NCBI GenBank assembly: GCA_903916595.1
Contig: CAIWXI010000049.1
Location: forward strand, 23,396-87,395
Source of the DNA: an uncultured Bacteroidales bacterium
GTDB lineage: Bacteria > Bacteroidota > Bacteroidia > Bacteroidales > FEN-979
Length of the DNA: 64,000 nt
Direction: 5' to 3'
This document shows, one piece after another, positions 2,300 through 23,567 of this stretch. Each line of letters begins with the position of its first letter. Positions within the stretch are counted from its first letter, which is position 1. The notes under the pieces are model-generated. The model worked only from the letters and a program-made list of their open reading frames with translations. It searched no databases and was not told the DNA's origin. A program made the position numbers and the translations under genes.

Positions 2300-3420
2300 T
2301 CCTCCAGATACTTTTCGATGATCCTGTGGACCGGCAAATCATTGAACTTGCTCCGAAGGATATATGTACCGAATTTTTCGGAGGGCTTTTCGATTTCGAG
2401 GGTGTAAAACCTGGCGGTGATCTTTAGATGGCTCAGAAGATGACTGACTTGCGTAGATTGTCCCAGTACCTTTACCTTGCTCGCCCCGAAAAACTGTCGC
2501 CATTCGGGGGTGTTCATCAGCCTTTGCAGGTTTACTGTTTTTGAAGTTTCAATCAGCGGAAATTCGTACAAGCCCTTCCAGATATCATTTCCTGTACGTT
2601 TCCTGAAAAATAATCCCTTTTTCCCTCTTACGCTAATCACCAGGTAATTGAAATACCTGGGCTTCAGAGGTTGCTGCTGTTTTTTTAGCGGAAGTTTTTC
2701 GACCATCCCGAATTTCAGCGCGTAACAGCTGTCGTTGAAAATGCAGTTATTGCACTGCGGATTACGTGGCACGCAATATGTTGCGCCGAATTCGATCATT
2801 GCCTGGTTGAACGTGCCGGATGTCGGATGCGGGATATGGGATACGGGATGCAAGATATCCTGCATCCTGCATCCTGCATCTTGTAACCTGCATCCTGCAT
2901 CCTGAATCTGTTCCATCAAACCATTCAGCACCTCCATGATCTCCTTCTTCACAGCAGCCTCATCAACCGGCCCGGTGATCCCGAAATGGCGGGTTATGAA
3001 ACGAATCACATTTCCATCCATTACAGGGTGGGGAAGACCGAAGCAGACTGAAGCAATCGCTGCAGCAGTGTAATCTCCAATCCCCTTTAATGCCCGGAGT
3101 CTGTCATAGGTTTCGGGAAATATTCCGTTATACTTTTCAACGATGTCATTTGCCGTGGAATGCAGATTGCGTGCCCTCGAATAATAACCCAGCCCCTGCC
3201 ATTGTTTCAACACCTCATCCTCAGTGGCCACGGCGAGGTCCTGAACCGTGGGAAAGACATCAGCGAACTTGTTATAATAAGGAACTCCCTGTTCAATGCG
3301 GGTTTGCTGCATAATGATCTCCGAAAGCCAGATCAGATAGGGATCGGTCGTCCGCCGAAAAGGAAAATCCCGGGCATTTGCCTTGTACCATTTAAAAAGC
3401 TTGTTCAGGAAATCATTCAT
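2293..3420 (-). CDS. mutY: A/G-specific adenine DNA glycosylase MutY, carrying a ~31-codon in-frame repeat insertion
   Basis: HhH-GPD motifs (LIWLSEIIMQQTRIEQG, LGYYSRARNLH, LKGIGDYTAAAIASVCFG), Fe-S loop CVPRNPQCNNCIFNDSC and a C-terminal NUDIX-like domain. Start moved to ATG 3420 (MNDFLNKLFKWY) because the 29 upstream codons of the track ORF are GTGNNNC repeat DNA and a -7 box lies at 3428-3435. Confidence 0.85.
   Translation of the reverse strand: MNDFLNKLFKWYKANARDFPFRRTTDPYLIWLSEIIMQQTRIEQGVPYYNKFADVFPTVQDLAVATEDEVLKQWQGLGYYSRARNLHSTANDIVEKYNGIFPETYDRLRALKGIGDYTAAAIASVCFGLPHPVMDGNVIRFITRHFGITGPVDEAAVKKEIMEVLNGLMEQIQDAGCRLQDAGCRMQDILHPVSHIPHPTSGTFNQAMIEFGATYCVPRNPQCNNCIFNDSCYALKFGMVEKLPLKKQQQPLKPRYFNYLVISVRGKKGLFFRKRTGNDIWKGLYEFPLIETSKTVNLQRLMNTPEWRQFFGASKVKVLGQSTQVSHLLSHLKITARFYTLEIEKPSEKFGTYILRSKFNDLPVHRIIEKYLEDY
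2816..2908. repeat. 13 phased heptamers forming an imperfect palindrome (GGATG-type arm / CCTGCAT-type arm) centred on GATATC 2854-2859, in frame inside mutY
   Basis: CCGGATG TCGGATG CGGGATA TGGGATA CGGGATG CAAGATA | TCCTGCA TCCTGCA TCCTGCA TCTTGTA ACCTGCA TCCTGCA TCCTGAA. Confidence 0.9.
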
Positions 3421-3452: not shown

Positions 3453-3508
3453 GTGAGCCATGAGCCGTGACACGTGACACGTGACACGTGGTACGTGCTT
3501 CGTACATC
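3453..3508. repeat. eight phased heptamers GTGNNNC (GTGAGCC ATGAGCC GTGACAC x3 GTGGTAC GTGCTTC GTACATC)
   Basis: Read directly. Lies upstream of the mutY start/-7 box. Confidence 0.9.
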
Positions 3509-4163: not shown

Positions 4164-5717
4164 GTGAACAAGGAACTCATCATCAACTCGACTTCATCGG
4201 AAGTCGAAATCGCCCTTCTGGAAGACAAGCTCCTTGTTGAGCTGAATAAGGAAAAGTCAAACAACGAGTATTCCGTAGGTGATATTTATTTGGGCCGGAT
4301 CAAGAAGATCATGCCAGGGCTGAATGCGGCTTTCGTCGACGTGGGTTACGAGAAGGATGCATTCCTTCATTACCTCGACCTTGGTCCCCAGGTTCAGTCC
4401 TTACTTAAATACATCAGACAGGCACAGTCGGGCAACGCACAGAATTTTAATTTAGGTGATTTTGTTTTTGAACCCGAGATTCTCAAGACGGGCAAGATAA
4501 ATCACGTACTGAAATCCGGTTCGAACATCCTGATTCAGATCGCCAAGGAACCTATCTCTACCAAAGGCCCGAGGGTATCTTCGGAACTTGCGTTTGCAGG
4601 CAGGTATCTGGTGCTGATTCCCTTTTCCGACAAAATTTCTGTTTCTCAAAAGATTAAGTCGGCGGAAGAGCGTAATCGGTTAAAACGACTTATTACCAGT
4701 ATCAAGCCAAAAAATTGCGGGGTGATCATCCGCACGGTAGCCGAGAACAAGCTGGTGGCCGACCTCGATGCCGACCTCAGGTCTTTATACAAGCGTTGGG
4801 AGTCCATCTCACAAAAACTGGTTGCCGCCAAGCCACCGGTAAAAATCATTGGCGAAATTGACCGTACTTCGGCTATCCTCAGGGACGCCCTCAACGAATC
4901 GTTTAACAATATCGTGGTGAACGATGCTACCCTGTTCGAGGAGATCAAAGCCTATATTGGCAAGATCTTTCCCGACAAGATAGGCATTGTAAAGCTTCAT
5001 TCGGGCAAGACGCCGATCTTCGAACAATATGGTATTGATAAGCAGATCAAGGGCACTTTCGGGAAGACCGTTACGATCAAAAGCGGAACGTATCTGGTAA
5101 TAGAACATACCGAAGCACTTCATGTGATCGATATTAATAGCGGGCATCGTGTGAACCAGGACCAGAACCAGGAAATGAATGCCCTGGAAACCAACCTGGA
5201 AGCCGCCGCGGAAGTCGCCCGTCAGCTTCGGCTGCGCGATATGGGCGGCATCATCGTGATCGACTTTATCGACATGACCCTGGGGCAGAACCGACGCAAG
5301 CTGTTCGATAAGCTCAGGGATGAGATGAAAAGAGACCGTGCCAAGCACAGCATCCTTCCCCCAAGCAAATTCGGACTAGTACAGATCACCCGGCAGAGGG
5401 TACGTCCCGAAATGAACGTGCAGATTCTCGAGAAATGCTCGGCTTGCGACGGAACAGGAGAAATACGTCCCAGTATCCTGCTTACCGACGAGATCGAGAA
5501 CAACCTCAGTTACCTCGTTCGCGAACAAAACGAAAAAGACCTTACCCTTATCGTCCATCCCTTCGTACATGCATTCCTCGTCAAAGGGTTCTTCAAAAAC
5601 GAACTTTCGAAATGGAAAAGCAAATACAAGGTTAAACTCAAACTCGAACCCCAGAACTCATACCATTTTCTCGAATACCATTTTTATAATAAGAATGGGG
5701 ACGAGATAAAGATGTAA
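4164..5717 (+). CDS. rng: ribonuclease E/G family (RNase G-like)
   Basis: S1 domain (GDIYLGRIKKIMPGLNAAFVDVG), catalytic-core motifs (HVIDINSG, GGIIVIDFIDM) and a Cys-containing Zn-link region (CSACDGTG). GTG start. Confidence 0.85.
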   Translation: MNKELIINSTSSEVEIALLEDKLLVELNKEKSNNEYSVGDIYLGRIKKIMPGLNAAFVDVGYEKDAFLHYLDLGPQVQSLLKYIRQAQSGNAQNFNLGDFVFEPEILKTGKINHVLKSGSNILIQIAKEPISTKGPRVSSELAFAGRYLVLIPFSDKISVSQKIKSAEERNRLKRLITSIKPKNCGVIIRTVAENKLVADLDADLRSLYKRWESISQKLVAAKPPVKIIGEIDRTSAILRDALNESFNNIVVNDATLFEEIKAYIGKIFPDKIGIVKLHSGKTPIFEQYGIDKQIKGTFGKTVTIKSGTYLVIEHTEALHVIDINSGHRVNQDQNQEMNALETNLEAAAEVARQLRLRDMGGIIVIDFIDMTLGQNRRKLFDKLRDEMKRDRAKHSILPPSKFGLVQITRQRVRPEMNVQILEKCSACDGTGEIRPSILLTDEIENNLSYLVREQNEKDLTLIVHPFVHAFLVKGFFKNELSKWKSKYKVKLKLEPQNSYHFLEYHFYNKNGDEIKM

Positions 5718-5725
5718 TTTAATGG

Positions 5726-5790
5726 ACGATGTACAATGTACGATGTACGATTAAAGAGTCCTTCGTACATCGTACATCGTAAATCGTACA
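5726..5790. repeat. inverted heptamer arrays (ACGATGT ACAATGT ACGATGT ACGA / TCGTACA TCGTACA TCGTAAA TCGTACA) giving a ~25-bp hairpin with a 12-nt loop
   Basis: Read directly. Occupies the rng-trpS spacer and ends 4 nt before the trpS ATG. Confidence 0.9.
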
Positions 5791-5794
5791 TTCC

Positions 5795-8455: not shown

Positions 8456-9454
8456 ATGAAAAATATTCTTCTCATTTCAATATTCGCGCTGAGTCTGGTT
8501 TGCTGCAATAATCCGTCTCAACGGGGCAAATCGGCGGCTGCAGACTCGGCGGCATCGGCCACGCCCAGGGTTGACGTGCCTTCGTTCAACAAAGATTCGG
8601 CTTATGCTTATGTTGTTGCGCAGCTTGCTTTCGGCCCCAGGGTTCCGGGTTCGCCTGCGCATGAAAAATGCGCTGAATACATCACAACGAAGCTTCAGTC
8701 ATGGTGCAAGGATGTGATCGTTCAGAAATGCAGGATGGCTGCATATAACGGTAAGATGCTGGATGGGAAGAACATCATCGCCTCCTGGAAACCCGAATTA
8801 AAAAACCGTATCGTCCTTTGCTCGCATTGGGAGTCAAGGCCCTGGGCCGATCATGATCCGGATCCGAAGCTGCGCCGCCAGCCTGTGGATGCCGCCAACG
8901 ACGGCGCCAGCGGGGTGGGTATTCTGATGGAAGCCGCCAGACAGTTCAGCATCAAAGAACCCACGATCGGTATCGATATTGTATTGTTTGACCTGGAAGA
9001 TTATGGTCCTCCCCAGGATGTAAGCCAGGGTGACGATAAATGGTGGGGGCTGGGATCACAGTACTGGGCCCAGAACCCGCATAAACAGGGGTATTCGGCA
9101 AGATATGGCATCCTTCTCGATATGGTCGGCGCCCAGGGTGCGACCTTCCTGCTTGAAGGCTTTTCACAGCAGAATGCAGGGGATATCCAGCAAAAGATCT
9201 GGGATACCGGCAACCGTATAGGCTATTCATCGTTCTTCCTCTACGAAAAAGGAGGTTTTGTGACCGACGACCATATTTTCATCATGAAGTACATGAACAT
9301 CCCTGTGGTTGACCTGATTCAACTTGACAAGAGCACCGAGTCGGGATTTAATTCTACATGGCATACCACCCACGACAATCTCGCTTCCATCGATGCAAAC
9401 ACACTTAAGGCTGTAGGTCAGACGGTGCTTACAGTAGTTTACGAAGAAGAGTAA
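8456..9454 (+). CDS. M28-family metallopeptidase fold, glutaminyl-cyclase-like lipoprotein
   Basis: Lipobox LSLVC-C. HWESRPWADHD, DGASGVGILME and VLFDLEDYG are metal-ligand contexts typical of M28 and type II glutaminyl cyclases of Bacteroidota. Confidence 0.7.
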   Translation: MKNILLISIFALSLVCCNNPSQRGKSAAADSAASATPRVDVPSFNKDSAYAYVVAQLAFGPRVPGSPAHEKCAEYITTKLQSWCKDVIVQKCRMAAYNGKMLDGKNIIASWKPELKNRIVLCSHWESRPWADHDPDPKLRRQPVDAANDGASGVGILMEAARQFSIKEPTIGIDIVLFDLEDYGPPQDVSQGDDKWWGLGSQYWAQNPHKQGYSARYGILLDMVGAQGATFLLEGFSQQNAGDIQQKIWDTGNRIGYSSFFLYEKGGFVTDDHIFIMKYMNIPVVDLIQLDKSTESGFNSTWHTTHDNLASIDANTLKAVGQTVLTVVYEEE

Positions 9455-9458
9455 TTTA

Positions 9459-9782
9459 CTTCTGCTCTTACTTTGCAGCTCTCAGCTACGGAACTATTAC
9501 GACCCACCATCGGCTTGCTTCCTAAGCCAGGTCAGCCGTTCGGTACTATGTTTGTCTCTTTTATAATGGGATAACCACTTAGTGAAGTCTAATTGAAGCG
9601 AAACATCTCACACAAGCTGCCTTGGGTGTTAAGGAGCGAATTACCCTTTAGAGTAAAATCTGGTAAATCATTCATGAGTGACGCAAACACCCCAGCAGCG
9701 GTGTGAGGATGTGAGCTAATGTAGGTCGCAGTAGTTTCGTAGCTGAGGGGTGCAGGGTCAGCGATGAAGCAGTAATGCAGAG
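9459..9782 (+). ncRNA. orphan highly structured element: candidate ncRNA, or alternatively a MITE-like element with ~24-bp terminal inverted repeats
   Basis: No ORF, lying between two convergent stops. 9481-9504 pairs with 9724-9747 (24 positions: 21 Watson-Crick, 2 G-U, 1 A-C mismatch on the + strand). A nested helix pairs 9604-9630 with 9686-9711, and there is a small hairpin GGCTT-GCTTCCT-AAGCC at ~9512-9528. Strand was assigned only from the G-U count. Confidence 0.4.
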
Positions 9783-9791
9783 ATGCCAGCG

Positions 9792-11150
9792 CTAAAGCAG
9801 CTCATTCGCAAGATTCGCGAGATCGGAGCGTTCGCCTTTCTCGAGCTTAATATGAGCATACAGGGGATGATGCTTGATCTTGTCGATGAGCGTCGACAGC
9901 CCGTTCGACTGTGCATCGAGATAAGGCGTATCGATCTGGTGGATATCGCCCGTGAAAATGATCTTGGTGTTTTCCCCGGCCCGGGTAATGATGGTCTTGA
10001 TCTCGTGAGGCGTCAGGTTCTGGGCCTCATCCACGATAAAGCATACGTTTGAAATACTTCGTCCGCGGATATACGCCAGGGGCGTGATTACCAGCTTTTC
10101 TGTTTCCACCGCTTCCTGTATCACCTTGTATTCCTTGTCTCTCTCGTTGTATTGGTTTTGAATGAATTTGAGGTTATCCCAGAGCGGCTGCATGTAAGGA
10201 TCGAGTTTCGATTTGATATCGCCGGGAAGGTAGCCGATATCTTTATTGCTTAAAGGAACGATCGGACGGGCCAGGTAGATCTGCTTGAAATTCTTTTTCT
10301 GCTCAAGGGCCCCGGATAATGCGAGTAAGGTCTTACCCGTACCTGCGATACCCTGTAATGTCACGAGTTTCACATCGGGATTCAGAATGGCATGAAATGC
10401 AAAAACCTGCTCGGCATTGCGGGGAGTGATCTTGAAACAGGAATGTTTTTCAATCTTTTCAATCCGTTCGGTAGCCGGGTTGAAGAAAGCAAGCACAGAG
10501 CTCTTCCCGTTCTTCAGAATATAATAATGATTAGGTACCGGTTTTTTCACTCCTATATCCTCGGGTAAACAAAATCCGGTTTCATACATCAGGTCGATGA
10601 TGGTCTTGTCGAGGCCGTCTACAAAGGTTTTCCCTGCATACAGTCCTTCCACATCCTTGACTTTGCCTGTAAGAAAATCCTCTGCCGCGATATTCAGGGC
10701 TTTGGCTTTCAGTCGCAGGTTGATATCTTTAGACACCAGGACCACCTTCTTTCCCGGGTTTTCCTGCATCATCATCAAGGCCGCGTTGAGGATCCAGTGG
10801 TCGGGTTTATTTTCACCAAACACCGTATTAGTGTCGAGATCGCTGTGCTCGTTCATCACTACCTTGAACTTGCCGCCTTTGCTTCCGCCCAGCGAAATCC
10901 ATTTGGTGAGGGTCGATCGTGCCGACAATTTATCCATTATGCGGATGAACTCCCTGGCTTCGAAATTGATGGTGTCGTTGCCTTTCTTGAAATCGTCGAG
11001 TTCCTCAAGCACCGTGATGGGGATCGCCACATCGTTGTCTTCAAAACTACTGATCGCGTCATGGTTATAAAGGATAACTGAGGTATCCAACACGAAGATC
11101 TTCTTGTTTGCTGATTTCTTTTTTATCATGGAAGATGTTTTGACTGGCAT
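9792..11150 (-). CDS. PIN-domain plus PhoH-like ATPase (YlaK-type)
   Basis: N-terminal PIN domain (FVLDTSVILYN...LEELD), Walker A GIAGTGKT and Walker B-like FIVDEAQNLT. Confidence 0.85.
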   Translation of the reverse strand: MPVKTSSMIKKKSANKKIFVLDTSVILYNHDAISSFEDNDVAIPITVLEELDDFKKGNDTINFEAREFIRIMDKLSARSTLTKWISLGGSKGGKFKVVMNEHSDLDTNTVFGENKPDHWILNAALMMMQENPGKKVVLVSKDINLRLKAKALNIAAEDFLTGKVKDVEGLYAGKTFVDGLDKTIIDLMYETGFCLPEDIGVKKPVPNHYYILKNGKSSVLAFFNPATERIEKIEKHSCFKITPRNAEQVFAFHAILNPDVKLVTLQGIAGTGKTLLALSGALEQKKNFKQIYLARPIVPLSNKDIGYLPGDIKSKLDPYMQPLWDNLKFIQNQYNERDKEYKVIQEAVETEKLVITPLAYIRGRSISNVCFIVDEAQNLTPHEIKTIITRAGENTKIIFTGDIHQIDTPYLDAQSNGLSTLIDKIKHHPLYAHIKLEKGERSDLANLANELL

Positions 11151-11241
11151 AAAAGTATGTGTTTAAACAGGGTGTTACGACATCCGCCGAAAGAAAATAT
11201 AAACAAGATTTTGTTGGGAAATATTTTATCCCTATTTCCAT

Positions 11242-11249
11242 TATCTTTG
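11242..11249 (+). promoter_or_regulatory. -7 box TAtcTTTG for polA
   Basis: 15 nt upstream of the in-frame TTG 11265. Confidence 0.5.
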
Positions 11250-11264
11250 CATAAAACCACTAAC

Positions 11265-14159
11265 TTGCCAGAAAACAAACTCTTCCTCCTCGATGCAATG
11301 GCCCTGATCTACCGGGCCTACTACGCGTTCAAGAACAACCCCAGGGTGAGTTCCAAAGGAGTAAACACCTCTGCTGCTTTCGGATTTGCCAATACTCTTT
11401 TTGATGTACTGCGGAAGGAAAAGCCCACGCATATAGGTGTTGCCTTTGATACCATCGCACCTACCGTGCGCCACGAAGGGTACGAATTGTACAAAGCTCA
11501 CCGACAGGAAACCCCGGAAGATATAATTTTATCAATTCCTCTTATTCACGAACTTCTTCACGCTTTTAGAATTCCCGTTCTTTTTGTTGATGGCTTTGAG
11601 GCGGATGACGTAATTGGTACCCTCGCCAGGCAGGCTGAAACTGCGGGATGGACTACTTATATGATGACTTCGGATAAGGACTTCGGACAACTTGTAAGTG
11701 CTACCACCCTGATTTACAAGCCCGGAAAGTTCGGCGGAGATGTTGAGATCATGGGCGTGAAGGAAGTCTGCGAGAAGTTCGGGATCAGCAATCCGCTTCA
11801 GGTCATCGATATGCTTGGTTTATGGGGAGATGCGTCGGATAATATACCTGGTATTCCCGGCGTGGGCGAAGTCACGGCCCGCAAACTCCTGGCCGAATTC
11901 GGCTCGGTGGAAAATCTTGTTGAACACCCAGAGAAGGTTGCCAACGAAAAACTGCGTCAGAAAGTTATTGAATTCAAAGATCAGGCCCTGATGTCGAAAA
12001 GCCTGGCAACTATCATTCTTGATGTTCCCATCGCCTTCGAACCGGATAAACTGGTCGTGGAAGCACCCGATGAGCTGCGGCTGAAAAGGTTGTTTGATGA
12101 ACTAGAGTTTCGGGCGCTCGGGGAACGTGTTTTCAAATGGGCGGCAGGGATGCAGGATCCAGGATCCAGGATCCAGGATGCAGGATCCAAAATCTTACAT
12201 CCCGCATCTGACATCCCGGACCTTTTCTCCGACCTTGAATCTGCTTCCCCAATCCCTAATCCCCAGTACCCAGTCACCCAGTCACCCAGTCATCCTGCAT
12301 CCAGCATCCTGGATCACGACTCACGGATCACGGATCACGACTCACTTGCCACGATCTCTGACACTCCCCACACCTATGTTCTTGTCAACACACAGGAAGC
12401 CCGCCTTGACCTCATCCGCAGTCTTAAGAAATCAAAAACATTCTGCTTTGACACGGAAACTACGGGAATTGACCCTAACAACTCGGAACTGGTAGGGATG
12501 TCGTTTTCGGTGAAGCCGCATGAGGCATATTATATTCCTCTCCCCGAGAACTACCATGAGACTGAACTTATCGTCCAGGAGTTCAAGGATGTACTTGAAG
12601 ATCCCAAGATCGAAAAAGTGGGACAGAACATGAAGTTCGACATTGCGATCCTGAAATGGTACGGCATCGATGTTAAGGTTCCCATGTTCGACACTATGCT
12701 GGCGCATTACCTTTTGCAGCCCGACATGAGGCATAATATGGATTTCCTCTCGGAGATCTATCTGAAATACAAGCCGGTACCTATTGAATCCCTCATAGGA
12801 AAAAAGGGCGCGGGCCAGCTTAGCATGCGCACGGTTGATACTGATACAATTAAAGAATATGCTGCGGAGGATGCTGATGTGACTCTTCAGCTGAAAAATG
12901 TGTTCGAGCCTTTGCTGGCTGATAGTGATACCCGTAAACTGTTCGACGAGATAGAGATTCCGCTCATTCCTGTTCTTGCTTCTATGGAAAAGGAAGGTGT
13001 GCGGATAGATTCTTCGGTTTTGAACGAATATTCGGTGGAGCTTGAAAAAGAAGTACTTATAATTAAGGAAGAGATTTTCAGGGAAGCCGGAACAACGTTT
13101 AACATCTCTTCTCCAAAACAGCTGGGCGAAATCCTTTACGAACGGCTGAAGATCGTTGAAAAGCCCAGGCAGACCAAGACCAAGCAGAATTCAACGAGCG
13201 AAGATGTGCTGACTAAGCTTGAAGCAAAACATCCGATCATCAGCAAAATATTGGAATACCGGTCTTTGGCAAAATTGAAGTCGACGTATGTGGATGTGCT
13301 TCCATTGTTGGTAAGCCCCCGTGATAATCGCATTCATACATCGTATAACCAGGCGGTTGCGGCTACAGGCAGACTGAGCTCCAATAATCCAAACCTTCAG
13401 AACATCCCTATCCGCACAGAGAAAGGGCGTGAAATCCGCAAAGCGTTTGTGCCCAGGAATGATAATTATATCTTGCTGAGCGCCGACTATTCCCAGATCG
13501 AACTTCGCATCATCGCATCGATGAGCGGGGATAAAAACATGATGGAGGCCTTTAAAAATGGCGAGGACATCCACCAGGCGACGGCTGCCAAGATTTACGG
13601 CATGAAGCTTTCTGAGGTGAGCAAGGACATGCGCAGGAATGCCAAAATGGTGAACTTCGGGATTATATACGGAATTTCAGCATTTGGTTTGTCAGAACGT
13701 TCAGGCATGTCGCGAAAAGAAGCTGCGGATGTGATAAAACAGTACTTTGAACAATACCCCGGGATCAGGGAGTATATGGATAATACCATCGCTTTTGCCC
13801 GGGCTAACGGTTTTGTGGAAACCCTTATGAAACGCAGGCGTTACCTTAGGGATATCCATTCGGGCAATGCCAACGTTCGCGGATTTGCCGAACGAAACGC
13901 CATCAATGCACCGGTTCAGGGTACAGCGGCCGATATGATAAAGATTGCCATGATCAGGATTTTTCATAAGTTTGAAGAGCAAAAACTAAGGTCGCGGATG
14001 ATATTGCAGGTTCACGACGAACTTGTGTTTGATGTGCATAATTCTGAAGTTGAAGAAGTTAAAAATATAATTGAAATTGGAATGAAGAACGCGTTGCTGC
14101 TGGATGTACCTGTTGAGATTGACATGAATACAGGAGCGAACTGGTTGCTGGCGCATTAG
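11265..14159 (+). CDS. polA: DNA polymerase I; the inter-domain linker is built from heptamer/octamer repeat DNA
   Basis: 5' nuclease (KLFLLDAMALIYRAYYAF), 3'-5' exonuclease (FCFDTETTG), polymerase motifs A (LLSADYSQIELRI), B (RRNAKMVNFGIIYG) and C (QVHDELVF). Start proposed at the in-frame TTG 11265, 15 nt after a TAtcTTTG box. The track ATG at 11157 would leave only 6 nt for the divergent phoH-like promoter. Confidence 0.85.
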   Translation: MPENKLFLLDAMALIYRAYYAFKNNPRVSSKGVNTSAAFGFANTLFDVLRKEKPTHIGVAFDTIAPTVRHEGYELYKAHRQETPEDIILSIPLIHELLHAFRIPVLFVDGFEADDVIGTLARQAETAGWTTYMMTSDKDFGQLVSATTLIYKPGKFGGDVEIMGVKEVCEKFGISNPLQVIDMLGLWGDASDNIPGIPGVGEVTARKLLAEFGSVENLVEHPEKVANEKLRQKVIEFKDQALMSKSLATIILDVPIAFEPDKLVVEAPDELRLKRLFDELEFRALGERVFKWAAGMQDPGSRIQDAGSKILHPASDIPDLFSDLESASPIPNPQYPVTQSPSHPASSILDHDSRITDHDSLATISDTPHTYVLVNTQEARLDLIRSLKKSKTFCFDTETTGIDPNNSELVGMSFSVKPHEAYYIPLPENYHETELIVQEFKDVLEDPKIEKVGQNMKFDIAILKWYGIDVKVPMFDTMLAHYLLQPDMRHNMDFLSEIYLKYKPVPIESLIGKKGAGQLSMRTVDTDTIKEYAAEDADVTLQLKNVFEPLLADSDTRKLFDEIEIPLIPVLASMEKEGVRIDSSVLNEYSVELEKEVLIIKEEIFREAGTTFNISSPKQLGEILYERLKIVEKPRQTKTKQNSTSEDVLTKLEAKHPIISKILEYRSLAKLKSTYVDVLPLLVSPRDNRIHTSYNQAVAATGRLSSNNPNLQNIPIRTEKGREIRKAFVPRNDNYILLSADYSQIELRIIASMSGDKNMMEAFKNGEDIHQATAAKIYGMKLSEVSKDMRRNAKMVNFGIIYGISAFGLSERSGMSRKEAADVIKQYFEQYPGIREYMDNTIAFARANGFVETLMKRRRYLRDIHSGNANVRGFAERNAINAPVQGTAADMIKIAMIRIFHKFEEQKLRSRMILQVHDELVFDVHNSEVEEVKNIIEIGMKNALLLDVPVEIDMNTGANWLLAH
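12145..12218. repeat. about 10 phased heptamers: CAGGGAT GCAGGAT CCAGGAT x3 GCAGGAT, then polarity flip CTTACAT CCCGCAT CTGACAT; in frame in polA
   Basis: Read directly. Confidence 0.9.
12262..12345. repeat. mixed array: CCCAGTA (CCCAGTCA)x3 TCCTGCA TCCAGCA TCCTGGA TCACGAC TCACGGA TCACGGA TCACGAC; in frame in polA
   Basis: Read directly. Confidence 0.9.
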
Positions 14160-14288
14160 AAATGGTGAAATGGTGAAATGGTGAGAATTAATTGTAGAAA
14201 ATAAATGTAGGAATTTAATCTTCTTTTTATTTCACCATTTCACCATTTCACCATTTCACCATTTCACCATTTCACCATTTCACCATTT
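14160..14288. repeat. (AAATGGTG)x3 - 44-nt AT-rich spacer - (ATTTCACC)x7.5: unequal inverted octamer arrays
   Basis: Read directly. The left arm starts 1 nt after the polA stop and the right arm ends 12 nt before the ROK ATG. Confidence 0.95.
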
Positions 14289-14300
14289 AATAATACCCCC

Positions 14301-15603: not shown

Positions 15604-16890
15604 ATGAAAAAAGTACTTTTTACTATTGTTCTTTTGCTTGCACTGAGTTCAGTTTTTGCCCAGAAAACACCAAGGGTTATGGTTGCAACAGAAGATGGAA
15701 CAGGCACGTGGTGCACATACTGCCCCGGTGCTGCCATGGGTTGTGATGACCTGCTTTCCAATGGAAAATTCGTTGGTGTTATTGCAAACCATAATGGCGA
15801 TGCATATGCCAACACGTATTCCAACTTCAGAAATACCATGTGGGGTATCAATGGTTTTCCCACAGTAACATTTGATGGTGTGAGGGGATCTGTAGGTGGT
15901 AACCACAGCACTTCGATGTACAACACTTACCTTCCGAAATACGTTGCATGTATTGCAGATTCTTCACCGGTTAAGATGCATATGGCTGTTACAAACACCG
16001 GCCTGGCTTACACTGCTGTTATTACCCTGGAAAAGCTTACCACGATCACTTCAGCCAGCAACATTCTGTTCTTTTTTGTTACCCAGTCGCACATCTCTGT
16101 GAACTGGCAGGGGCAGAACCACCTGGAGCATGTTAACCGCCTTATGTCACCCGATCAGAACGGAACTCCTGTTGACTTCAGCAGTGGCGATGTGCAGACT
16201 GTGACTCTTAATTTCACCATGAATGCTGCATGGCCCATTGCAGACTGTGAATTCATTGCATTTCTTCAAAATAAAGATGCCGGTCAGGGGTATATTGCTT
16301 CACCTGTTAAGAAATTTGCTGTTTACCAGTGTGTCAAGCAGGGAACTGTTGACCTGAATGTTGACTTCTCTCCCAACGCTACCGAAATCAACCAGGGTGA
16401 AACCGTTACTTTTACAAACAATACTTCAGGCGGTTATATTGGCGTTCCTGAAACTTATGAATGGAATTTCCCCGGTGGAACTCCTGCTACTTCACAAGAT
16501 AAAAACCCTGTGATTCTGTATGAACATGGTGGATTTTATGATGTTCAGCTCATCGTGAACCGTGGTGGCCAGATTGACACCCTCACCAGACCATCTTTTA
16601 TTGTTGTGAAGTTCCCTGTTGGCCTCAGCGAACAGGCCGGAACCCAGGTTGCTGTATCCCCCAACCCCAGCCATGGCGAATTCAAAGTAAACTTCAATGT
16701 TGCTAAATCATTTGTTGCCGACCTCAGCATCGTCAATTCAGCCGGAAGGACTGTTTACAGCGAAAGCAATGTTACGGTAAACAATAACACGAGCAAAACC
16801 ATCAGGACCAGCGGTCTTTCTGCAGGCGAGTATTTCCTCACTCTTCAGAACGGAGACTCCAAACTGGTTAAAAAGATCATCATTAATTAA
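15604..16890 (+). CDS. Omp28-related/thioredoxin-like secreted protein with a PKD domain and a T9SS C-terminal sorting domain
   Basis: Signal peptide ending VFA-QK, TWCTYCP redox-like motif, PKD (ETVTFTNNTSGG...YEWNFPGGTPATS...YDVQLIV), CTD (VSPNPSHGEFKVNF...GEYFLTLQNGDSKLVKKIIIN). Confidence 0.75.
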   Translation: MKKVLFTIVLLLALSSVFAQKTPRVMVATEDGTGTWCTYCPGAAMGCDDLLSNGKFVGVIANHNGDAYANTYSNFRNTMWGINGFPTVTFDGVRGSVGGNHSTSMYNTYLPKYVACIADSSPVKMHMAVTNTGLAYTAVITLEKLTTITSASNILFFFVTQSHISVNWQGQNHLEHVNRLMSPDQNGTPVDFSSGDVQTVTLNFTMNAAWPIADCEFIAFLQNKDAGQGYIASPVKKFAVYQCVKQGTVDLNVDFSPNATEINQGETVTFTNNTSGGYIGVPETYEWNFPGGTPATSQDKNPVILYEHGGFYDVQLIVNRGGQIDTLTRPSFIVVKFPVGLSEQAGTQVAVSPNPSHGEFKVNFNVAKSFVADLSIVNSAGRTVYSESNVTVNNNTSKTIRTSGLSAGEYFLTLQNGDSKLVKKIIIN

Positions 16891-16914
16891 TCTGAAATCA
16901 AGACTTTAATCCTG

Positions 16915-16946
16915 AGAGGCCGTCATTCTATGGCGGCCTCTTTTTA
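16915..16946 (+). terminator. intrinsic terminator after the Omp28-like gene
   Basis: AGAGGCCG-(11-nt loop)-CGGCCTCT followed by TTTT. Confidence 0.65.
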
Positions 16947-17006
16947 TAACCCCTCAAGCAACTATCAGGGCCCATTCTCTGTCTTCTTCTTACTAAAATT
17001 ACCACT

Positions 17007-19121
17007 ATGAAAAAACTTATTCTGCTTGCGCTGATATCTCTCCTGAACCTTGCCCTGTTTGCCGGAACCGTCACCAAAACATATCACTTCGGCAAAGTCA
17101 TTATTAAGAGCAACGGGAACTACCAGACACTTTCTTTCGAAAATACACTGTTGTCGGGCAATCCCGGTGAACCTATGATGCCCTGGGCCGCTGTATCGCT
17201 TATGCTGCCCCCGGGTGAATCTGCAACAGGTATTCAGATGCAAACATCAGGATTCGTGGAAATACAGGGATCTTTTCTGATACAGCCTCAACAGGATATC
17301 AGTCCGATTTCAAAAGGCAATAATGGGAAATTTCTGAAAAATGAAGCTGTTTACAGCTCCTCATCAACATATCCCCTTGTGAATACCGGGAATCTTAACA
17401 CTTCCTGGCTTAACGGATATGCCTTTGCCCTTTGCACTTTTACTCCAATGGTATATTACCCTTCGCTTCAGAAAGCCGGATATTATTCAGAAATAACCAT
17501 TACTATTACTACCGAAAAATCGGCTGCCTCGGCCGAAGCGCTGAAAAACCTTTCGCCATCCCTGAAAGTATTGAACAGGGTGCAGCAGTTTGCACAAAAC
17601 CCTGATCTCATCAACCGTTATCCTCAGAAAAAAAGCGCCGCTACCGGGTATCAGGTCCTTATCGTCACAAAACAGGCTTTCTCGTCGGGGTTTGCTCCTC
17701 TCACTGCCCTGTATGATTCTCTGGGGATCACCTGGCAGATAGCTACCGTTGAAAATATCTCCGCCGCAATGAGTGGCGCCGACACCCAGGAAAAAATCAG
17801 GAATTTCATTCAGCAGGAATACCAGCAGAACGGCATTGAATATGCCATGCTTGGTGGTGATGTGGAAATTGTTCCACACCGCAATTTTTACTGCTCTGTA
17901 CTTTCCGGTGGCAGTTATTATACAGCTTTTGATATCCCTTCCGACCTTTACTATTCGGGCATGGACGGCAATTACGATGCGAACAATAACGGGATTTATG
18001 CTGAAGTAGATGATGTTGCTGATCTGCTCCCCGATGTTTCTGTTGGAAGGCTTCCTTTCAGCACAGCTCAGGAACAAACCAACATCATTCATAAAACGAT
18101 CTGGTACAGGGCTCATCAGAAGGCCAACGAACAGGCCCGGCCACTTCTGGCAGCTGAATTTATGGATCAGGGAACGATGACTTTCGGGCAGGATTATCTG
18201 GAACTGATGGTGAACGATCGTACCGACAATGGCTATTTCACTCACGGCATTCCTTCCGCCTCAAACTCTATCGACAGGTTGTACGATACTCTGACCAGCC
18301 CTGTAGGCCCCACTCTTTACGAATGGACTACTTCTGAACTGCTGGCGAGGATAAACCATGGCCCTTCGTTTATTCATCATGCCGGCCATGCTAATGAAGT
18401 TTATGTGATGAAGCTTTATATCAGCGATATCACCAATGCAAATTTCTTTGCCCTGAACGGGGTCACTCATAATTATACCTTGATGTATACTCACGGATGT
18501 GACTGTGGGGCTTTCGACGCCAACGACTGTATCGCCGAAAGGATGGTGCTGATCCAGAATTTCCTTGCCGGCGGTGTTTTCAATTCCAGATATGGATGGT
18601 TTGACCAGGGGACTACCGAAGGTCCTTCGGCCCATCTGAACCGTGAATTCGTAAGCGCTTTGTATAACGACACTCTGGCTAACCAGATCCATGAACTGGG
18701 TTCAGCTCATCTGATGTCGAAAGTAAAAACAGCTCCATGGGTTACTGTTCCTAACGAATTTGAACCGGGAGCCCAACGCTGGTGTCATTATGATTGTAAT
18801 GTACTTGGCGACCCTGTGCTTTGGGTGTTCACCGAGAATATCCCGGTAGGTATACAAGATAAATCGCAGGAGGTCTCTCTTACAGTGTATCCGAATCCCT
18901 GCAGCGGCAAAGTCACCCTGAAATCCACTTCAATCAGGGCATCAAAAGTAAATCTCTCTTTGATTAATACCTTCGGACAGATTGTAGGAACCTGGGAAAA
19001 TATGAATCTGTCTGACCCTCAGTCACTTACGCTTAGTCTGCCTCAGCTTCCTTCAGGCGTATACTCCCTTGAAGCTTATGGTCCTGATTTTAAAACAAAC
19101 ATTAAACTGATCATCAGATAA
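17007..19121 (+). CDS. C25 (gingipain-like) cysteine peptidase with a T9SS CTD
   Basis: Signal peptide and N-terminal C25 propeptide-like region. Catalytic-type contexts HAGHANE (His) and YTHGCDCGAFD (Cys). CTD (VYPNPCSGKVTL...GVYSLEAYGPDFKTNIKLIIR). Confidence 0.8.
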   Translation: MKKLILLALISLLNLALFAGTVTKTYHFGKVIIKSNGNYQTLSFENTLLSGNPGEPMMPWAAVSLMLPPGESATGIQMQTSGFVEIQGSFLIQPQQDISPISKGNNGKFLKNEAVYSSSSTYPLVNTGNLNTSWLNGYAFALCTFTPMVYYPSLQKAGYYSEITITITTEKSAASAEALKNLSPSLKVLNRVQQFAQNPDLINRYPQKKSAATGYQVLIVTKQAFSSGFAPLTALYDSLGITWQIATVENISAAMSGADTQEKIRNFIQQEYQQNGIEYAMLGGDVEIVPHRNFYCSVLSGGSYYTAFDIPSDLYYSGMDGNYDANNNGIYAEVDDVADLLPDVSVGRLPFSTAQEQTNIIHKTIWYRAHQKANEQARPLLAAEFMDQGTMTFGQDYLELMVNDRTDNGYFTHGIPSASNSIDRLYDTLTSPVGPTLYEWTTSELLARINHGPSFIHHAGHANEVYVMKLYISDITNANFFALNGVTHNYTLMYTHGCDCGAFDANDCIAERMVLIQNFLAGGVFNSRYGWFDQGTTEGPSAHLNREFVSALYNDTLANQIHELGSAHLMSKVKTAPWVTVPNEFEPGAQRWCHYDCNVLGDPVLWVFTENIPVGIQDKSQEVSLTVYPNPCSGKVTLKSTSIRASKVNLSLINTFGQIVGTWENMNLSDPQSLTLSLPQLPSGVYSLEAYGPDFKTNIKLIIR

Positions 19122-19131
19122 ATCGCAAAAC

Positions 19132-22125
19132 ATGAAGAAACATTTATTTATTCTTGCCTCCCTGATTCTTACAGCATTTTCGCTGAGTGCAGAAAATTTT
19201 ACATACAGCAACAGCTGGGGTAAACAGGGTTTTAACCTTATCCAGTCAAAATCGGATGTGATACAGCTCGTGTATTCCATTCAGAATTTCTCTGTCGACC
19301 CTGTGGTCATCAACGGACAATCCTTGAAAAAAGTGAACCTTCCGGGAAACTTTCTTTTCAATGATGCAGGCAAGCCTGACCTTCCCGGAACCGGACATTA
19401 TCTTGCAATTCCCCAGGGCTCTGCTCCCCGTTTAAGGATTGTTGACTTTGAAATGGAAACCATTCATGGAGTCGATCTTGCATGGGCGCCCGAACTGCCC
19501 ATGGATACCCAGAAAGACATGGTTTACAACAAAGACCAGCAGGTCTACAGCGCCAACGCTTTTTATCCTGAAAGCCCGGTACAGATCTCAGGAGTGGACC
19601 AGATTCGCGGTACCGACGTGGTTATCCTTGGAATCACCCCCTTCCAGTACAACCCCGTTACAAAGGAACTGAAGGTGTACAGGAACATAAAGATCGATCT
19701 CACTTTCGAGGGAGGTAGCGGCAAATTTGGTAACGATGCTTTCCGCAGTCAGTACTGGGATCCCATCATGGCCGACAATATTCTGAATTTCTCAAGCCTT
19801 CCTTCAGTGAACTATCCCGAACGTATGGCCAACCTCAGGAACACCAATAAACCCGCAACCGATGAATGTGAATATATCATCATCAGCCCTAACGGACCTG
19901 ATTTTCTGAGGTGGGCCGACAGTCTGAAGAACTGGCGTAACCAGCAGGGTATCCTCACCAAAGTTTTCTCTCTGGCTCAGGTTGGCGGAAATACCGAAGC
20001 TCTCATCAAAAGCTTTGTAAGCAATGCATACAACAACTGGACGATTAAACCTGTTGCCTGTTTGTTGCTTGGTGATTATGGAACGGATGCCTCCAAAAAC
20101 ATTACCTCACATCTTTATTCACATCCCGCGGGCTATCCCAATTTCGCTTCCGATAATTATTATTCTGACTTTACCGGCGACGAGATGCCTGACGTTGTTT
20201 TTGCCCGAATTGCCGCAAATGATTCGGTGCAGCTTCGTAAAATGGTTGGACGTCAACTGAATTTCGAGAGAAACCGTCCGGTCGATACAAGCTATTACAA
20301 ACATCCTATTTCTGCTCTCGGATGGCAGGATGACCGCTGGTTCCAGCTGTGTTCTGAACTCGTTGGAGGGTTCTGGAAAAATAAACTCGGGAAACATGTA
20401 ATCAGGATCAACGCCCTGGGTTCCCCGGCAAATAACTACAACAACGGTCCCTGGTCAACAGCTTCCAATACCAATACGGTAATGAATTATTTCGGTCCTT
20501 CTGGTTTGAATTATATCCCAACCATCCCTGGCACTATCGGAGGATTTACAGGCGGGACTGCCACCATGATCAATGCCGCCATCAACAGCGGGTCATTCCT
20601 GTTACTTCACAGAGATCACGGATATTATTCAGGATGGGGAGAGCCAGCTTACGCCTCGGGTAACGTTAGTCAGTTAACCAATACCCTTCTTCCTTTTGTG
20701 TTCTCCATCAATTGCGAAACCGGCGCCTACCATAATCCTTCAGGTTGCCCTGCCGAATGTTTTCAGGAAGTCTTTCAGCGCCTTTATAAAAACGGTCACG
20801 ATGCCGGCGCTCTTGGCCTGGTATGCCCGAGCGAAACTTCTTATTCTTTTGTAAACGATGTTTTCGTATGGGGAGCCTTCGATAATATGTGGCCTGAGTT
20901 TATGCCCTCATATGGTTCAAATCCCGCTTCCAGAGGCATCCTTCCTGCCTTTGCGAATGCTGCCGGAAAATATTTCCTGAAACAGTCCAGCTGGCCGTAC
21001 AACACCAGCGACAAACAGGTTACATACCGTTTATTCCATATGCATGGCGATGCTTTTTTGCAGCTTGCCGATACTGTACCCATCAATCTGACAGTAAACC
21101 ATGCCGATACCATTAGCATGGGTACCACAACTGTCAATATCACGGCTAACGACAGCGCTTTCATCGCCCTTTCGGTGAATAATGAGATCATTGCAACAGC
21201 TTTCGGAAGCGCTTCAGGCCCGGTATCAATTACCATTCCGGATCTCCCTGATGGAACACAGATCCTGGTCGTGGCCACAAAACAGGATTTTAACCGCCAC
21301 ACATCACATATTCTGGTACTGCAGCTGCCTCTTGCTGCTGAATTTACGGCCAGCGCTACCGAAGTTTGCGTCGGTTCTCCGCTTAACTTTACAGATCTTT
21401 CTACCGGTGCTCCTACCGCCTGGGAATGGACTTTACAGGGCGGCACACCGGCAACATCCACCGATCAGAACCCGGCAGGGGTAGTGTATGCCGCGGCCGG
21501 CTCTTACGATGTAAGCCTTACCGTCACAAAATCAGGCCAAAGCCCCAGCACTACAACAAAGACCGCCTATATCAATGTATATGAGCAGCCTGTTGCAGCC
21601 TTTACAAGCAGCGGATCCTATGCCGGTTCACCTACTTCATTCACCGATCAGACGGTCCACCCGGGATCCACTATTATTGGTTGGTTATGGAATTTCGGTG
21701 ATCCTACATCCGGGTCCAGCAATACTTCTACCCAGCAGAACCCAACCCATACGTATTATGCACACGACACTTATGCCGTGACACTGCAAATTCAGACCAC
21801 GGGCGGTTGTGTCGATTCAACAACGACTGATGTGGTTATAAATTTCCCGGTCAGTATCAACGATATCAATGCCCTTGGTTTTGATATCTTCCCCAACCCC
21901 TCAAACGGTAAATTCACCATCACTTTCAATTCCCGTGCGGCTGTTGCGGTAACAATCAACGTGTTCAATTCACTGGGCACAACGCTGTATTCCGAAAAAG
22001 ACCTTCAGGTCAATGGCCGATTCAGCAAGCTTGTTGACTTCACAGGGAAACCAGCAGGAATCTATTATATCAAGATCGAAAGCGAAGCCGGATCTGTAGT
22101 ACGGAAACTGGTGCTCGGAAAGTAA
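19132..22125 (+). CDS. C25-family cysteine peptidase with two PKD domains and a T9SS CTD
   Basis: LLLHRDHGYYSGWGEP (His) and VFSINCETGAY (Cys) contexts. Two PKD repeats (WEWTLQGGTPATS...YDVSLTV; WLWNFGDP...YAVTLQI). CTD (IFPNPSNGKFTITF...GIYYIKIESEAGSVVRKLVLGK). Begins 10 nt after the preceding gene. Confidence 0.8.
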   Translation: MKKHLFILASLILTAFSLSAENFTYSNSWGKQGFNLIQSKSDVIQLVYSIQNFSVDPVVINGQSLKKVNLPGNFLFNDAGKPDLPGTGHYLAIPQGSAPRLRIVDFEMETIHGVDLAWAPELPMDTQKDMVYNKDQQVYSANAFYPESPVQISGVDQIRGTDVVILGITPFQYNPVTKELKVYRNIKIDLTFEGGSGKFGNDAFRSQYWDPIMADNILNFSSLPSVNYPERMANLRNTNKPATDECEYIIISPNGPDFLRWADSLKNWRNQQGILTKVFSLAQVGGNTEALIKSFVSNAYNNWTIKPVACLLLGDYGTDASKNITSHLYSHPAGYPNFASDNYYSDFTGDEMPDVVFARIAANDSVQLRKMVGRQLNFERNRPVDTSYYKHPISALGWQDDRWFQLCSELVGGFWKNKLGKHVIRINALGSPANNYNNGPWSTASNTNTVMNYFGPSGLNYIPTIPGTIGGFTGGTATMINAAINSGSFLLLHRDHGYYSGWGEPAYASGNVSQLTNTLLPFVFSINCETGAYHNPSGCPAECFQEVFQRLYKNGHDAGALGLVCPSETSYSFVNDVFVWGAFDNMWPEFMPSYGSNPASRGILPAFANAAGKYFLKQSSWPYNTSDKQVTYRLFHMHGDAFLQLADTVPINLTVNHADTISMGTTTVNITANDSAFIALSVNNEIIATAFGSASGPVSITIPDLPDGTQILVVATKQDFNRHTSHILVLQLPLAAEFTASATEVCVGSPLNFTDLSTGAPTAWEWTLQGGTPATSTDQNPAGVVYAAAGSYDVSLTVTKSGQSPSTTTKTAYINVYEQPVAAFTSSGSYAGSPTSFTDQTVHPGSTIIGWLWNFGDPTSGSSNTSTQQNPTHTYYAHDTYAVTLQIQTTGGCVDSTTTDVVINFPVSINDINALGFDIFPNPSNGKFTITFNSRAAVAVTINVFNSLGTTLYSEKDLQVNGRFSKLVDFTGKPAGIYYIKIESEAGSVVRKLVLGK

Positions 22126-22136
22126 TTGAGAATATG

Positions 22137-22177
22137 TGTAACGTATTACCTGATAGGTGATACGTTACATTTTTTTA
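22137..22177 (+). terminator. intrinsic terminator after the second C25 gene
   Basis: TGTAACGTA-(15 nt)-TACGTTACA followed by T7. The hairpin overlaps the convergent corC stop. Confidence 0.7.
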
Positions 22178-23463
22178 ATAATAAGCTTATCTATTCGGTT
22201 TCCGTCGAGATCGACTATCTCGAACTCATAATCCATAAAAACGAATTTCTCACCCGGCTTGGGGATGCGTTTGAGAATGCTTATGGCAAGGCCGGCCAGG
22301 GTGTTGAATTTTATCCTTGACTTGTCGAAGCCCTGCAGGTTGAATTCATAAGCAAATTCGTAGAACGACATCTGTCCGTCGGCAAGCCAGCTGCCGTCGT
22401 CCCTGATATTAATCTGAGGCTCATCGGGATCAGGTTCGTTGAAATCACCTACAATTGCCTCAAGTATATCATTCAGCGTTACCATCCCTACAATCGAACC
22501 GTATTCATCGACCACCAGTCCGTAATGGATCTTGTTTTCCTTGAAAAGCTCCAGCGACTCATAGGCCGTAAGCGTTTCCAGAACCAGCTGTGCAGGCCGG
22601 GTATATTCCTTCAGATTCAAATCCGCATCGGGCTTGGAATGTAAAAAAAGATCCTTGATATACACCACCCCCAGAACATTGTCGAGATCATCGTGGCATA
22701 CAGGGTAAACCGAATGAACCTCTTCCCTCATTTTTTTCCATATCTCAGAAAGGTGTTCGTTCACATCGAGCCAGATGATATCGGAATAATGCGTCATAAG
22801 CGAAGCAATTTTCTGATCGCCAAGATGAAACACCCGTTCCACGATATCCTGCTCTATCTCCTGAACTTCCCCGTCGTCGGTGCCTTCCTGAACCATCGCA
22901 CGAATCTCTTCTTCTGTAACTTTTGAATCGGCGGATGGCTTTATCCCAAGAATTCCGATAATCAGGTCGCTTAACCTGGTAAGCAGCCAGGTAACCGGTT
23001 GAATTACATACGAAATAGCGACAATAGGCCGTATCATTACTTTGGAAATGCCTTCGCTCTTGATAAGCCCGATACGTTTTGGCACAAGTTCCCCTATAAG
23101 CATAGATACCAGGGTTACAACCAATACGACCAGAGAAAGGGCAAGAGATTTTGCAACAGTTGCAGAAACACCCGAGGAGATCAGCAGTGACGCAACGCCC
23201 TCGGATATCCCGGCCCCGCTGAAAACCCCGGTAAGGATTCCGATGAGGGTAATGGCAATTTGAAAAGTAGAGAGGATGCGGGCCGGTTTATTGAGCTGGT
23301 CAAGAGCTACACGCGCTCCTTTATGGCCCGATTGTGCATCCAGCTCCAGCCTGGTCTTGCGTGACGAAACCATTGCGATCTCGGTCATCACGAAGACGCC
23401 GTTGATGAGGAAAAGAGCGAAGAGAATGAATATTTCTGCTATCATACCTTGAATGTTTGCCAT
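22165..23463 (-). CDS. CNNM/CorC-HlyC family membrane protein (DUF21-CBS pair-CorC_HlyC)
   Basis: Four N-terminal TM helices, a tandem CBS region and a C-terminal transporter-associated domain, 432 aa. GldE-type naming is not justified without gldD context. Confidence 0.8.
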   Translation of the reverse strand: MANIQGMIAEIFILFALFLINGVFVMTEIAMVSSRKTRLELDAQSGHKGARVALDQLNKPARILSTFQIAITLIGILTGVFSGAGISEGVASLLISSGVSATVAKSLALSLVVLVVTLVSMLIGELVPKRIGLIKSEGISKVMIRPIVAISYVIQPVTWLLTRLSDLIIGILGIKPSADSKVTEEEIRAMVQEGTDDGEVQEIEQDIVERVFHLGDQKIASLMTHYSDIIWLDVNEHLSEIWKKMREEVHSVYPVCHDDLDNVLGVVYIKDLFLHSKPDADLNLKEYTRPAQLVLETLTAYESLELFKENKIHYGLVVDEYGSIVGMVTLNDILEAIVGDFNEPDPDEPQINIRDDGSWLADGQMSFYEFAYEFNLQGFDKSRIKFNTLAGLAISILKRIPKPGEKFVFMDYEFEIVDLDGNRIDKLIIKKM

Positions 23464-23499
23464 CTGCCATCTGATATCAGATATCAGATATCAGATACA
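23458..23499. repeat. six phased heptamers TGCCATC TGCCATC TGATATC AGATATC AGATATC AGATACA
   Basis: Read directly. Includes the corC start codon (23461-23463) and fills its leader. Confidence 0.9.
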
Positions 23500-23504
23500 T
23501 TTTC

Positions 23505-23512: not shown

Positions 23513-23538
23513 CGCATTCCCCGGGCAAAAATGTTCCG

Positions 23539-23546: not shown

Positions 23547-23567
23547 TTTATGGTGATTCCCTGCAAT

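Follow-up and report, generated by a model that had tools for sequence, protein, structure and literature searches.

A non-coding spacer between convergent genes

The 64-kb stretch of DNA analysed here (the window) comes from an uncultured Bacteroidales bacterium (contig CAIWXI010000049.1). In it, the genes for an M28-family peptidase (M28, + strand) and a PIN + PhoH ATPase (PhoH, − strand) converge within a wider neighbourhood of housekeeping genes, with Lnt upstream and DNA polymerase I downstream. The spacer between their stop codons contains an element in which two inverted arms (O and O') enclose a subterminal block (M) and a long hairpin (H). [quoted passage not shown] On this reading the element is not a stand-alone RNA gene. 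An earlier inspection of the single sequence (the sequence-only reading) had offered both a novel structured non-coding RNA (ncRNA) and a non-autonomous MITE-like element as hypotheses.

The spacer of the window, which we call allele A, is genuine and not an assembly artefact, since its 337 nt are base-for-base identical across 8 independent metagenome assemblies; the flanks of these assemblies vary at 4–62 of 5,999 sites, where measured. Two more allele-A contigs have a spacer of equal length, and their H agrees in both orientation and model score. In the sequence collection, 132 blocks list the exact M28 protein.

In keeping with the sequence-only reading, no open reading frame (ORF) in the spacer exceeds 37 aa, and the only ones inside it (23–37 aa, with TTG, GTG or ATG starts) are located in parts that are not conserved in L103, one of the sister-species contigs described below. 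The failure to recognise a known RNA was likewise borne out. Rfam 15 returned no family for the spacer at gathering thresholds, the best match up to E = 10 being snoZ182 (15.5 bits, E = 8.2), and ARAGORN found no transfer-messenger RNA in it. Neither a sigma-70-type promoter nor an intrinsic terminator was called within the spacer. By eye, a lone Bacteroidetes −7-like box, TATGTTTG, can be seen at 9547–9554 (+ strand); it was dropped as a promoter candidate, not being conserved in L103 and, as a single box, lying near chance expectation. A direct repeat with copies of 10 and 11 nt (GAAGAGTAAT at 9446–9455, GAAGCAGTAAT at 9766–9776) brackets nearly the whole spacer, overlaps the M28 stop codon and could be a trace left by an insertion long ago.

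The arms, CTCAGCTACGGAACTATTACGACC and GGTCGCAGTAGTTTCGTAGCTGAG, are complementary at 21 of 24 positions, the exceptions on the + strand being two G·U pairs and one A·C. Searched for with up to 3 mismatches across the 64 kb, they occur at these two sites only (0.00 expected from shuffles). The outward extension of the pairing that had been suggested also exists, in weaker form, over 49 nt at 76% complementarity (9459–9507 with 9721–9769, by a repeat finder). The same program reported the core of the inner helix, which joins 9603/4–9630 to 9686–9711/12, and the small hairpin at 9512–9528 (GGCTT/AAGCC) is present as described. The fold beats shuffled controls on the + strand, at −126.3 kcal/mol (z = −6.96, with 0 of 100 shuffles as good), and the − strand folds at −112.6 kcal/mol (z = −6.35). 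When 16 window spacers of 70–700 nt were compared by z-scores against mononucleotide shuffles, just two others were equally extreme, both of them tandem-repeat hairpins.

Alleles, homologues and modules

Our first sample comprised 80 syntenic loci encoding PhoH relatives from GTDB species, which place the host among uncultured Bacteroidales. The element had no match in these 80 loci by blastn or nhmmer, with M28–PhoH synteny retained. The first impression of a lineage-specific insert was superseded when homologues emerged in closer relatives, which were sampled by exact-protein look-ups (numbered contigs are designated L). The M28/PhoH spacer measures 0–50 nt in related genera versus 95–501 nt inside the closest clade, and the long spacer is taken to be derived because the related genera carry the short one.

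Within the clade the spacer turns over, with at least 10 alleles. Contigs with the exact PhoH protein of the window have flanks that are 96–99.6% identical, and 97–99% identical at 4-fold degenerate sites. Five such contigs nevertheless carry a 257-nt spacer, allele B, with a core that is not alignable with that of the window. Allele C, found with the same PhoH protein, has another neighbouring gene, and the cores of B and C are unrelated or distantly related to A. Similarity between A and B resumes exactly at 9748 (breakpoint 9747/9748) and is lost leftward at about 9460; the last three codons of M28 are not the same in the two alleles. L114 and L115 encode an identical PhoH protein and have spacers of 226 nt (2839–3064) and 501 nt (2839–3339), respectively. 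That of L115 is a large palindrome, with two H head-to-head and a self reverse-complement match of E = 8.5e-26. In L107 there is only a relic, a part of the element.

Other arrangements were also seen at this locus. In a sister species (L001 at 4360–4575, also L108 and L109), the M28/PhoH spacer holds an unrelated 186-nt imperfect palindrome with arms AAAAGCGATTTCCCCTGC and GCAGGGAAATCGCTTTT, which has short terminal motifs alone in common with the window element. On a conspecific contig (L089, 1495–1993), a small helix-turn-helix-like gene replaces M28 beside the spacer; the end of this contig carries a Nextera adapter (ATGTGTATAAGAGACAG), and part of the contig may be an artefact.

Homologues also occur in a further sister species (L103–L106). 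There, PhoH is 95% identical and 4-fold sites are 40–51% identical, that is, saturated. The 281-nt M28/PhoH spacer is homologous to the window element (nhmmer E = 6e-23) and lies in the opposite orientation. The 67 nt of window positions 9481–9547 are 89.6% identical in L103. This copy has the structure H-M-O; its second arm is missing, so that no closing helix is possible, and the stability of the spacer is at the level of its shuffles (z of −1.1 and −0.4). The closing helix is not present in L003, L114 or L112 either. L103 carries a second H next door, between Lnt and M28, in a spacer that measures 286 nt versus 25 nt in the window; this gives two H within 6.4 kb.

The element also occurs away from the M28/PhoH locus altogether. 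A scan of 241 million metagenome records with a 22-nt arm pattern, which is too specific for diverged arms like that of L103, returned one matching contig, L090. In this contig, an arm, the GGGTGCAGGG motif and the inner hairpin follow an MBOAT/AlgI stop codon (nhmmer E = 8e-14, ~170 nt), and the contig terminates within the element. The right arm O' is ~97% identical to the L090 arm. In MBOAT relatives with 86–87% amino-acid identity, the spacer to the next gene (MBOAT/ALGX), occupied in L090, is 55–93 nt long.

Further members were found with a covariance model, R1, built on hairpin H, which scores 111.5 bits on the window at 9589–9719. They are L003, allele B, allele C, L112/L113 (window-like orientation), L114 (opposite orientation) and L115 (two hits). 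Overall, the homologues lie in three different spacers, in either orientation and beside 'empty' sites in relatives. No second copy was found within the window by blastn, nhmmer or the covariance model, and none in ~60 loci from other genera.

The modules that emerge from these comparisons are listed in Table 1. Read on the minus strand, the full element runs from arm O' (9747–9724) through H (9712–9603) and M (9602–9505) to arm O (9504–9481), a length of 267 bp (9481–9747; 267–311 bp including the extension) with 24-nt arms and H stem halves of ~27 nt each. The 24-bp 'closing helix' of the sequence-only reading is simply these two inverted terminal arms. Both arms have orthologues in other copies. 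The O-H junction survives in L090 and the M-O junction in L103; the layout O-H-M-O is therefore older than these copies and no local accident. Outside the right arm stands the motif GGGTGCAGGG...AGCGATG. Alleles A and B, L114 and, at a locus unrelated to this one, L090 all have it in common, and it therefore probably belongs to the element, most likely as its true terminal region (GGGTGCAGGG...AGCGATGAAG in Table 1). Three direct TCGCT motifs flank H. Among the copies, the O, H and M modules occur in varied combinations and orientations, having been gained, lost, inverted or duplicated head-to-head, and extra solo 3'-arm units are found in L003 and L103.

Table 1. Flanking genes and modules of the allele-A spacer, in window coordinates.
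Feature	Position	Strand	Remarks
M28-family peptidase, 332 aa, upstream flanking gene	8456..9454	+	
Spacer between convergent stop codons, 337 nt, allele A	9455..9791		
Weak outer extension of left inverted repeat	9459..9480		partly common to sister-species spacer L001
Left terminal arm O (CTCAGCTACGGAACTATTACGACC)	9481..9504		orthologue in L103 contiguous with block M
Conserved subterminal block, proximal M, 43 nt	9505..9547		includes hairpin 9512–9528
Variable distal M	9548..9602		not alignable with L103; holds −7-like box TATGTTTG
Hairpin H, conserved module	9603..9712		stem 9603–9630 / 9686–9712, conserved bulges
H apex, 55 nt	9631..9685		variable
Linker between H and right arm, about 12 nt	9713..9723		
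Right terminal arm O' (GGTCGCAGTAGTTTCGTAGCTGAG)	9724..9747		outer end is the A/B allele breakpoint
Terminal motif GGGTGCAGGG...AGCGATGAAG	9748..9769		probable terminal region of the element
PIN + PhoH (YlaK-like) ATPase, 452 aa, downstream flanking gene	9792..11150	−	

H is the sole module common to all members, and its stem is under clear constraint. When 6 copies are aligned with MAFFT, pairing is kept in 85% of cells, and both sides have changed in 11 of the 24 pairs. With 11 model-aligned copies the figures are 82.7% of cells paired and 12 of 24 pairs compensatory (35 cells), with one-sided G-U changes in 3 cells only; this larger alignment was fitted to the model and hence leans to structure, and the MAFFT result agrees with it. 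The observed covariation score is matched by 0 of 500 shuffles, and slid controls pair at 29–50%. Of the compensatory changes in relatives that the sequence-only reading had looked to as a sign of an ncRNA, those of the inner helix are real, with conservation and covariation in relatives, whereas the whole architecture and the closing helix are not conserved.

Neither strand is favoured by this constraint. Non-Watson-Crick cells in H divide into 8 G·T and 6 A·C, and when both strands of four copies were folded, no strand was consistently better. In RNA hairpins of one strand, switches between AU and GC go through a G-U intermediate in ~90% of cases, and a terminator shared by two convergent genes is under tighter constraint than a one-way terminator (PMC5381666). 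Given the few G-U intermediates and the balance of G·T and A·C, the comparison of copies points to a strand-symmetric constraint on H, either at the DNA level or because both transcripts must fold.

Nature of the element and rival explanations

MITEs are 70–300 bp long, have inverted ends of 15–30 bp and lack coding capacity (PMC3733652), and the element falls within these limits of total length, arm length and coding content. Compared with bacterial MITEs such as Neisseria Correia/NEMIS, enterobacterial ERIC, pneumococcal RUP and the MITEs of Porphyromonas gingivalis, it is similar in size, in its imperfect terminal inverted repeats (24 nt, extendable to 49), in being non-coding and intergenic at gene 3' ends, in its presence or absence among strains, in its occurrence in either orientation and in the long RNA hairpins into which it can fold. 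Presence/absence is seen in the MBOAT/ALGX and Lnt/M28 spacers, which are occupied in some genomes and short in others, and in the at least 10 M28/PhoH alleles. It departs from MITEs in that no unambiguous target-site duplication was found, nor, in the searches given below, a cognate transposase or an insertion sequence with the same ends. Its copy number is apparently very low, the modules in its interior are shuffled, and what is conserved is a hairpin inside the element and not the ends only. The MITE-like hypothesis therefore fits better than the ncRNA hypothesis as regards size, inverted arms, lack of coding, the three spacers, both orientations and empty sites, and is less well supported as regards the classical hallmarks, namely duplication of the target site, multiple copies in a genome and a transposase with matching ends. 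The copy count proposed in the sequence-only reading gives a single copy in the 64-kb window, with homologues in other spacers of relatives.

These internal modules are where the element resembles repetitive extragenic palindromes (REPs) and BIMEs. It shares with them a mosaic build, in which palindromic units alternate in orientation and the linkers vary, a site after genes or between convergent genes, and strain variation. REPs between convergent genes are strain-variable 3' untranslated region (3'UTR) terminators and stabilisers (bioRxiv 10.64898/2026.03.23.713779), and a 3'UTR terminator or stabiliser role is the one that we propose here. The arm ends ...CCGTAGCTGAG hold a GTAG tetranucleotide, a putative terminal tag whose likeness may be coincidental. 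REP units are, however, 20–40 nt long and present in hundreds of copies, unlike the rare, ~110–130-nt hairpin of this element, and a RAYT (Y1/HUH transposase) was not found among the window ORFs scanned.

If the element is such a repeat, it would spread or rearrange at the DNA level, by transposition in trans, by recombination between inverted modules, or by both. It would persist by giving each of the two convergent transcripts a stable 3' hairpin, which could act as a read-through barrier or as a 3'-end protector or stabiliser, in the manner of REP/BIME and MITE hairpins. By analogy with REPs, and from its location and strand symmetry, this two-way function in 3' ends is probable. In its position between convergent stop codons, and in a stem that is kept on both strands, contains few G-U pairs and favours neither strand, the element resembles bidirectional intrinsic terminators. 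It differs from them in that the stem of H is 24–27 bp long and bulged, with a 45–60-nt apex, versus 5–14 bp and a small loop, in that H has no flanking A/U tracts, and in that copies also lie between co-directional genes.

Several observations weigh against a mobile palindromic repeat. Both candidate target-site duplications (TGCA; GAAGAGTAAT / GAAGCAGTAAT) are ambiguous, with no true empty site for comparison. TGCA, which stands 3 nt outside both arms, is weakened further, since the sequence in common with L090 continues beyond it. The 44 long window ORFs that were scanned yielded no transposase, no recombinase and no reverse transcriptase. A same-ended element (CTCAGCTACGG...) was not found in viral contigs (0 matches to the arm and hairpin motifs), in plasmids and phages by blastn, or in the metagenome scan. 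Copy number looks low, with one per 64 kb, none in the ~60 other-genus loci and one metagenome contig. Most copies sit in one spacer, so long residence with rearrangement in place could explain much without transposition. The 90% identity of 9481–9547 despite saturated neutral sites suggests a sequence-specific function or recent transfer. Finally, as regards transcription and an effect on the flanking genes, the role proposed above is a prediction from sequence.

We consider it unlikely that the spacer is instead a novel gene for a structured ncRNA, independent of its neighbours and ~270 nt long, with the 24-bp helix closing it, read from one strand and acting in trans. Such a gene would account for the very stable fold (z about −7), for the covariation of the inner hairpin, which is real, for the conservation of 9481–9547 and the H stems far above neutral sites between species, and for a sequence without an Rfam family. 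It would not be expected to lack its closing helix and to be no more stable than its shuffles in the closest homologue, L103, to flip relative to the flanking genes, or to have its core wholly replaced between conspecific strains. The strand-symmetric mismatches, with neither strand folding consistently better, the failure to find a promoter or terminator in the spacer, and the occurrence of H-only copies and relics argue in the same direction, and leave the ncRNA hypothesis of the sequence-only reading mostly unsupported. A particular RNA, the retron-type msr/msd ncRNA (terminal a1/a2 repeats around an msr with small hairpins and an msd with a long one), has a similar layout to that seen here, namely 24-nt inverted repeats, a 99-nt region of small hairpins and then a long hairpin. 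However, the neighbours are M28 and PhoH and not a reverse transcriptase, which is also missing among the other window ORFs scanned, and for want of this gene a retron RNA is effectively excluded; some copies are truncated or consist of H alone, none of the retron families in Rfam matches, and we regard this identity as extremely improbable.

The remaining alternatives act on DNA. Invertons are common in Bacteroidales, which is the host order here as well, and the 24-bp inverted repeat around ~220 bp, with both orientations seen among relatives, is reminiscent of one. In such a switch, a site-specific recombinase would flip the 219-bp segment between the 24-bp repeats and re-aim an internal promoter at either convergent gene, yielding antisense RNA. 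The sizes of repeat and segment are typical, the H + M interior occurs in both orientations among related genomes, L115 has two H in opposite orientation, and the −7-like box TATGTTTG at 9547–9554 could serve as promoter. Yet no inversion shows among the contigs compared, the 8 assemblies being identical and the two further allele-A contigs having H in the same orientation; the repeats are imperfect, with 3 of 24 positions mismatched, no nearby recombinase turned up among the window ORFs scanned, the box is not conserved in L103 and is close to chance as a single box, and there is no downstream gene start to regulate. L103, without one of the repeats, would be unable to invert. An inverton is thus improbable, and we assign a comparably low probability to a neutral hot spot, at which template-switch or hairpin-primed replication errors together with slippage create palindromes that are functionless and immobile. 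The richness of the genome in 7–8-nt tandem arrays and tandem-repeat hairpins, the occurrence of such arrays at the apex of H in alleles B and C, the head-to-head duplication in L115 and the unrelated 186-nt palindrome of L001 at the same position are what a hot spot would produce; it does not explain why 12 compensatory pairs hold the H stem in copies with saturated neutral sites, why both arms have orthologues in other copies, or why homologues lie at unrelated loci. There is, finally, an outside chance that H is a recombination substrate of folded single-stranded DNA, REP- or attC-like, for an HUH-type or tyrosine recombinase encoded elsewhere, or that the arms are a true invertible switch. 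The strict Watson-Crick, strand-symmetric covariation, the conserved bulges and the TCGCT motifs lead to this reading of H. From sequence only, H resembles integron attC sites in the precedence of structure over sequence, in Watson-Crick covariation, in conserved unpaired stem bases and in a variable terminal structure. It differs in having no gene cassettes or integrase and no R''/R' core (RYYYAAC / GTTRRRY) by eye, and identity with attC was dropped on the latter ground.

Tandem repeats in the window and significance of the repeat

Short tandem repeats look like a genome-wide habit in this organism. The window contains thirteen tandem arrays, twelve with 7–8-nt units and one with a 14-nt unit, several of them within ORFs (positions include 355–381, 1417–1469, 1855–1933, 2857–2908, 3466–3490, 12148–12292, 23469–23497, 34556–34603 and 35234–35258). 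The same heptamers reappear in relatives' spacers: allele B has (GTGTCAC)n, allele C has (GTGAGTC)n, and in L114 the spacer between Lnt and M28 is filled by (GATGCRG)n and (CCAAYAA)n. Right after the polA stop codon, at 14159–14290, tandem octamers form a hairpin with z about −12, composed of (GAAATGGT)x3, a 45-nt AT-rich loop and (TCACCATT)x8. Another, of heptamers ((ATGTACG)n versus (CGTACAT)n; z about −8), lies at 5718–5794 between RNase E/G and TrpS/TyrS-type genes.

Within polA itself (11157–14159), inverted heptamer and octamer arrays at 12148–12352 fall in the linker between the 5'-3' and 3'-5' exonuclease domains and keep the reading frame in translation (..QDPGSRIQDAGSKI..HDSRITDHDS..). 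Across close relatives, PolA is called at lengths between 953 and 1033 aa, suggestive of a hypervariable coding linker. Elsewhere in the window, 15604–26993 is a type IX secretion cargo cluster (Por_Secre_tail) with two gingipain-like C25 peptidases (17007–19121 and 19132–22125). At 56406–62397, downstream of sugar-transferase genes, six consecutive same-strand ORFs of 102–813 aa have no Pfam match at E <= 1e-10.

The M28/PhoH spacer illustrates how a single sequence can mislead: 270 nt with a near-perfect closing helix, nested helices and a z near −7 mimic a large ncRNA, and comparison within the population and between species reveals a shuffled palindromic repeat. Such spacers should be flagged as unstable for metagenome assembly and strain typing. 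If our interpretation as a palindromic repeat is true, the element represents an undescribed repeat family of uncultured freshwater Bacteroidales, although the kind of element is not categorically new. If, on the other hand, H is a folded-DNA recombination substrate, it would be part of what drives spacers in this clade to be replaced like cassettes, inverted and duplicated head-to-head. The modular grammar of O, H and M, the turnover of alleles between strains with 96–99.6% identical flanks and the strand-symmetric covariation make the element useful for study, and its position between convergent genes provides a natural system in which to ask about hairpins that serve 3' ends in both directions.

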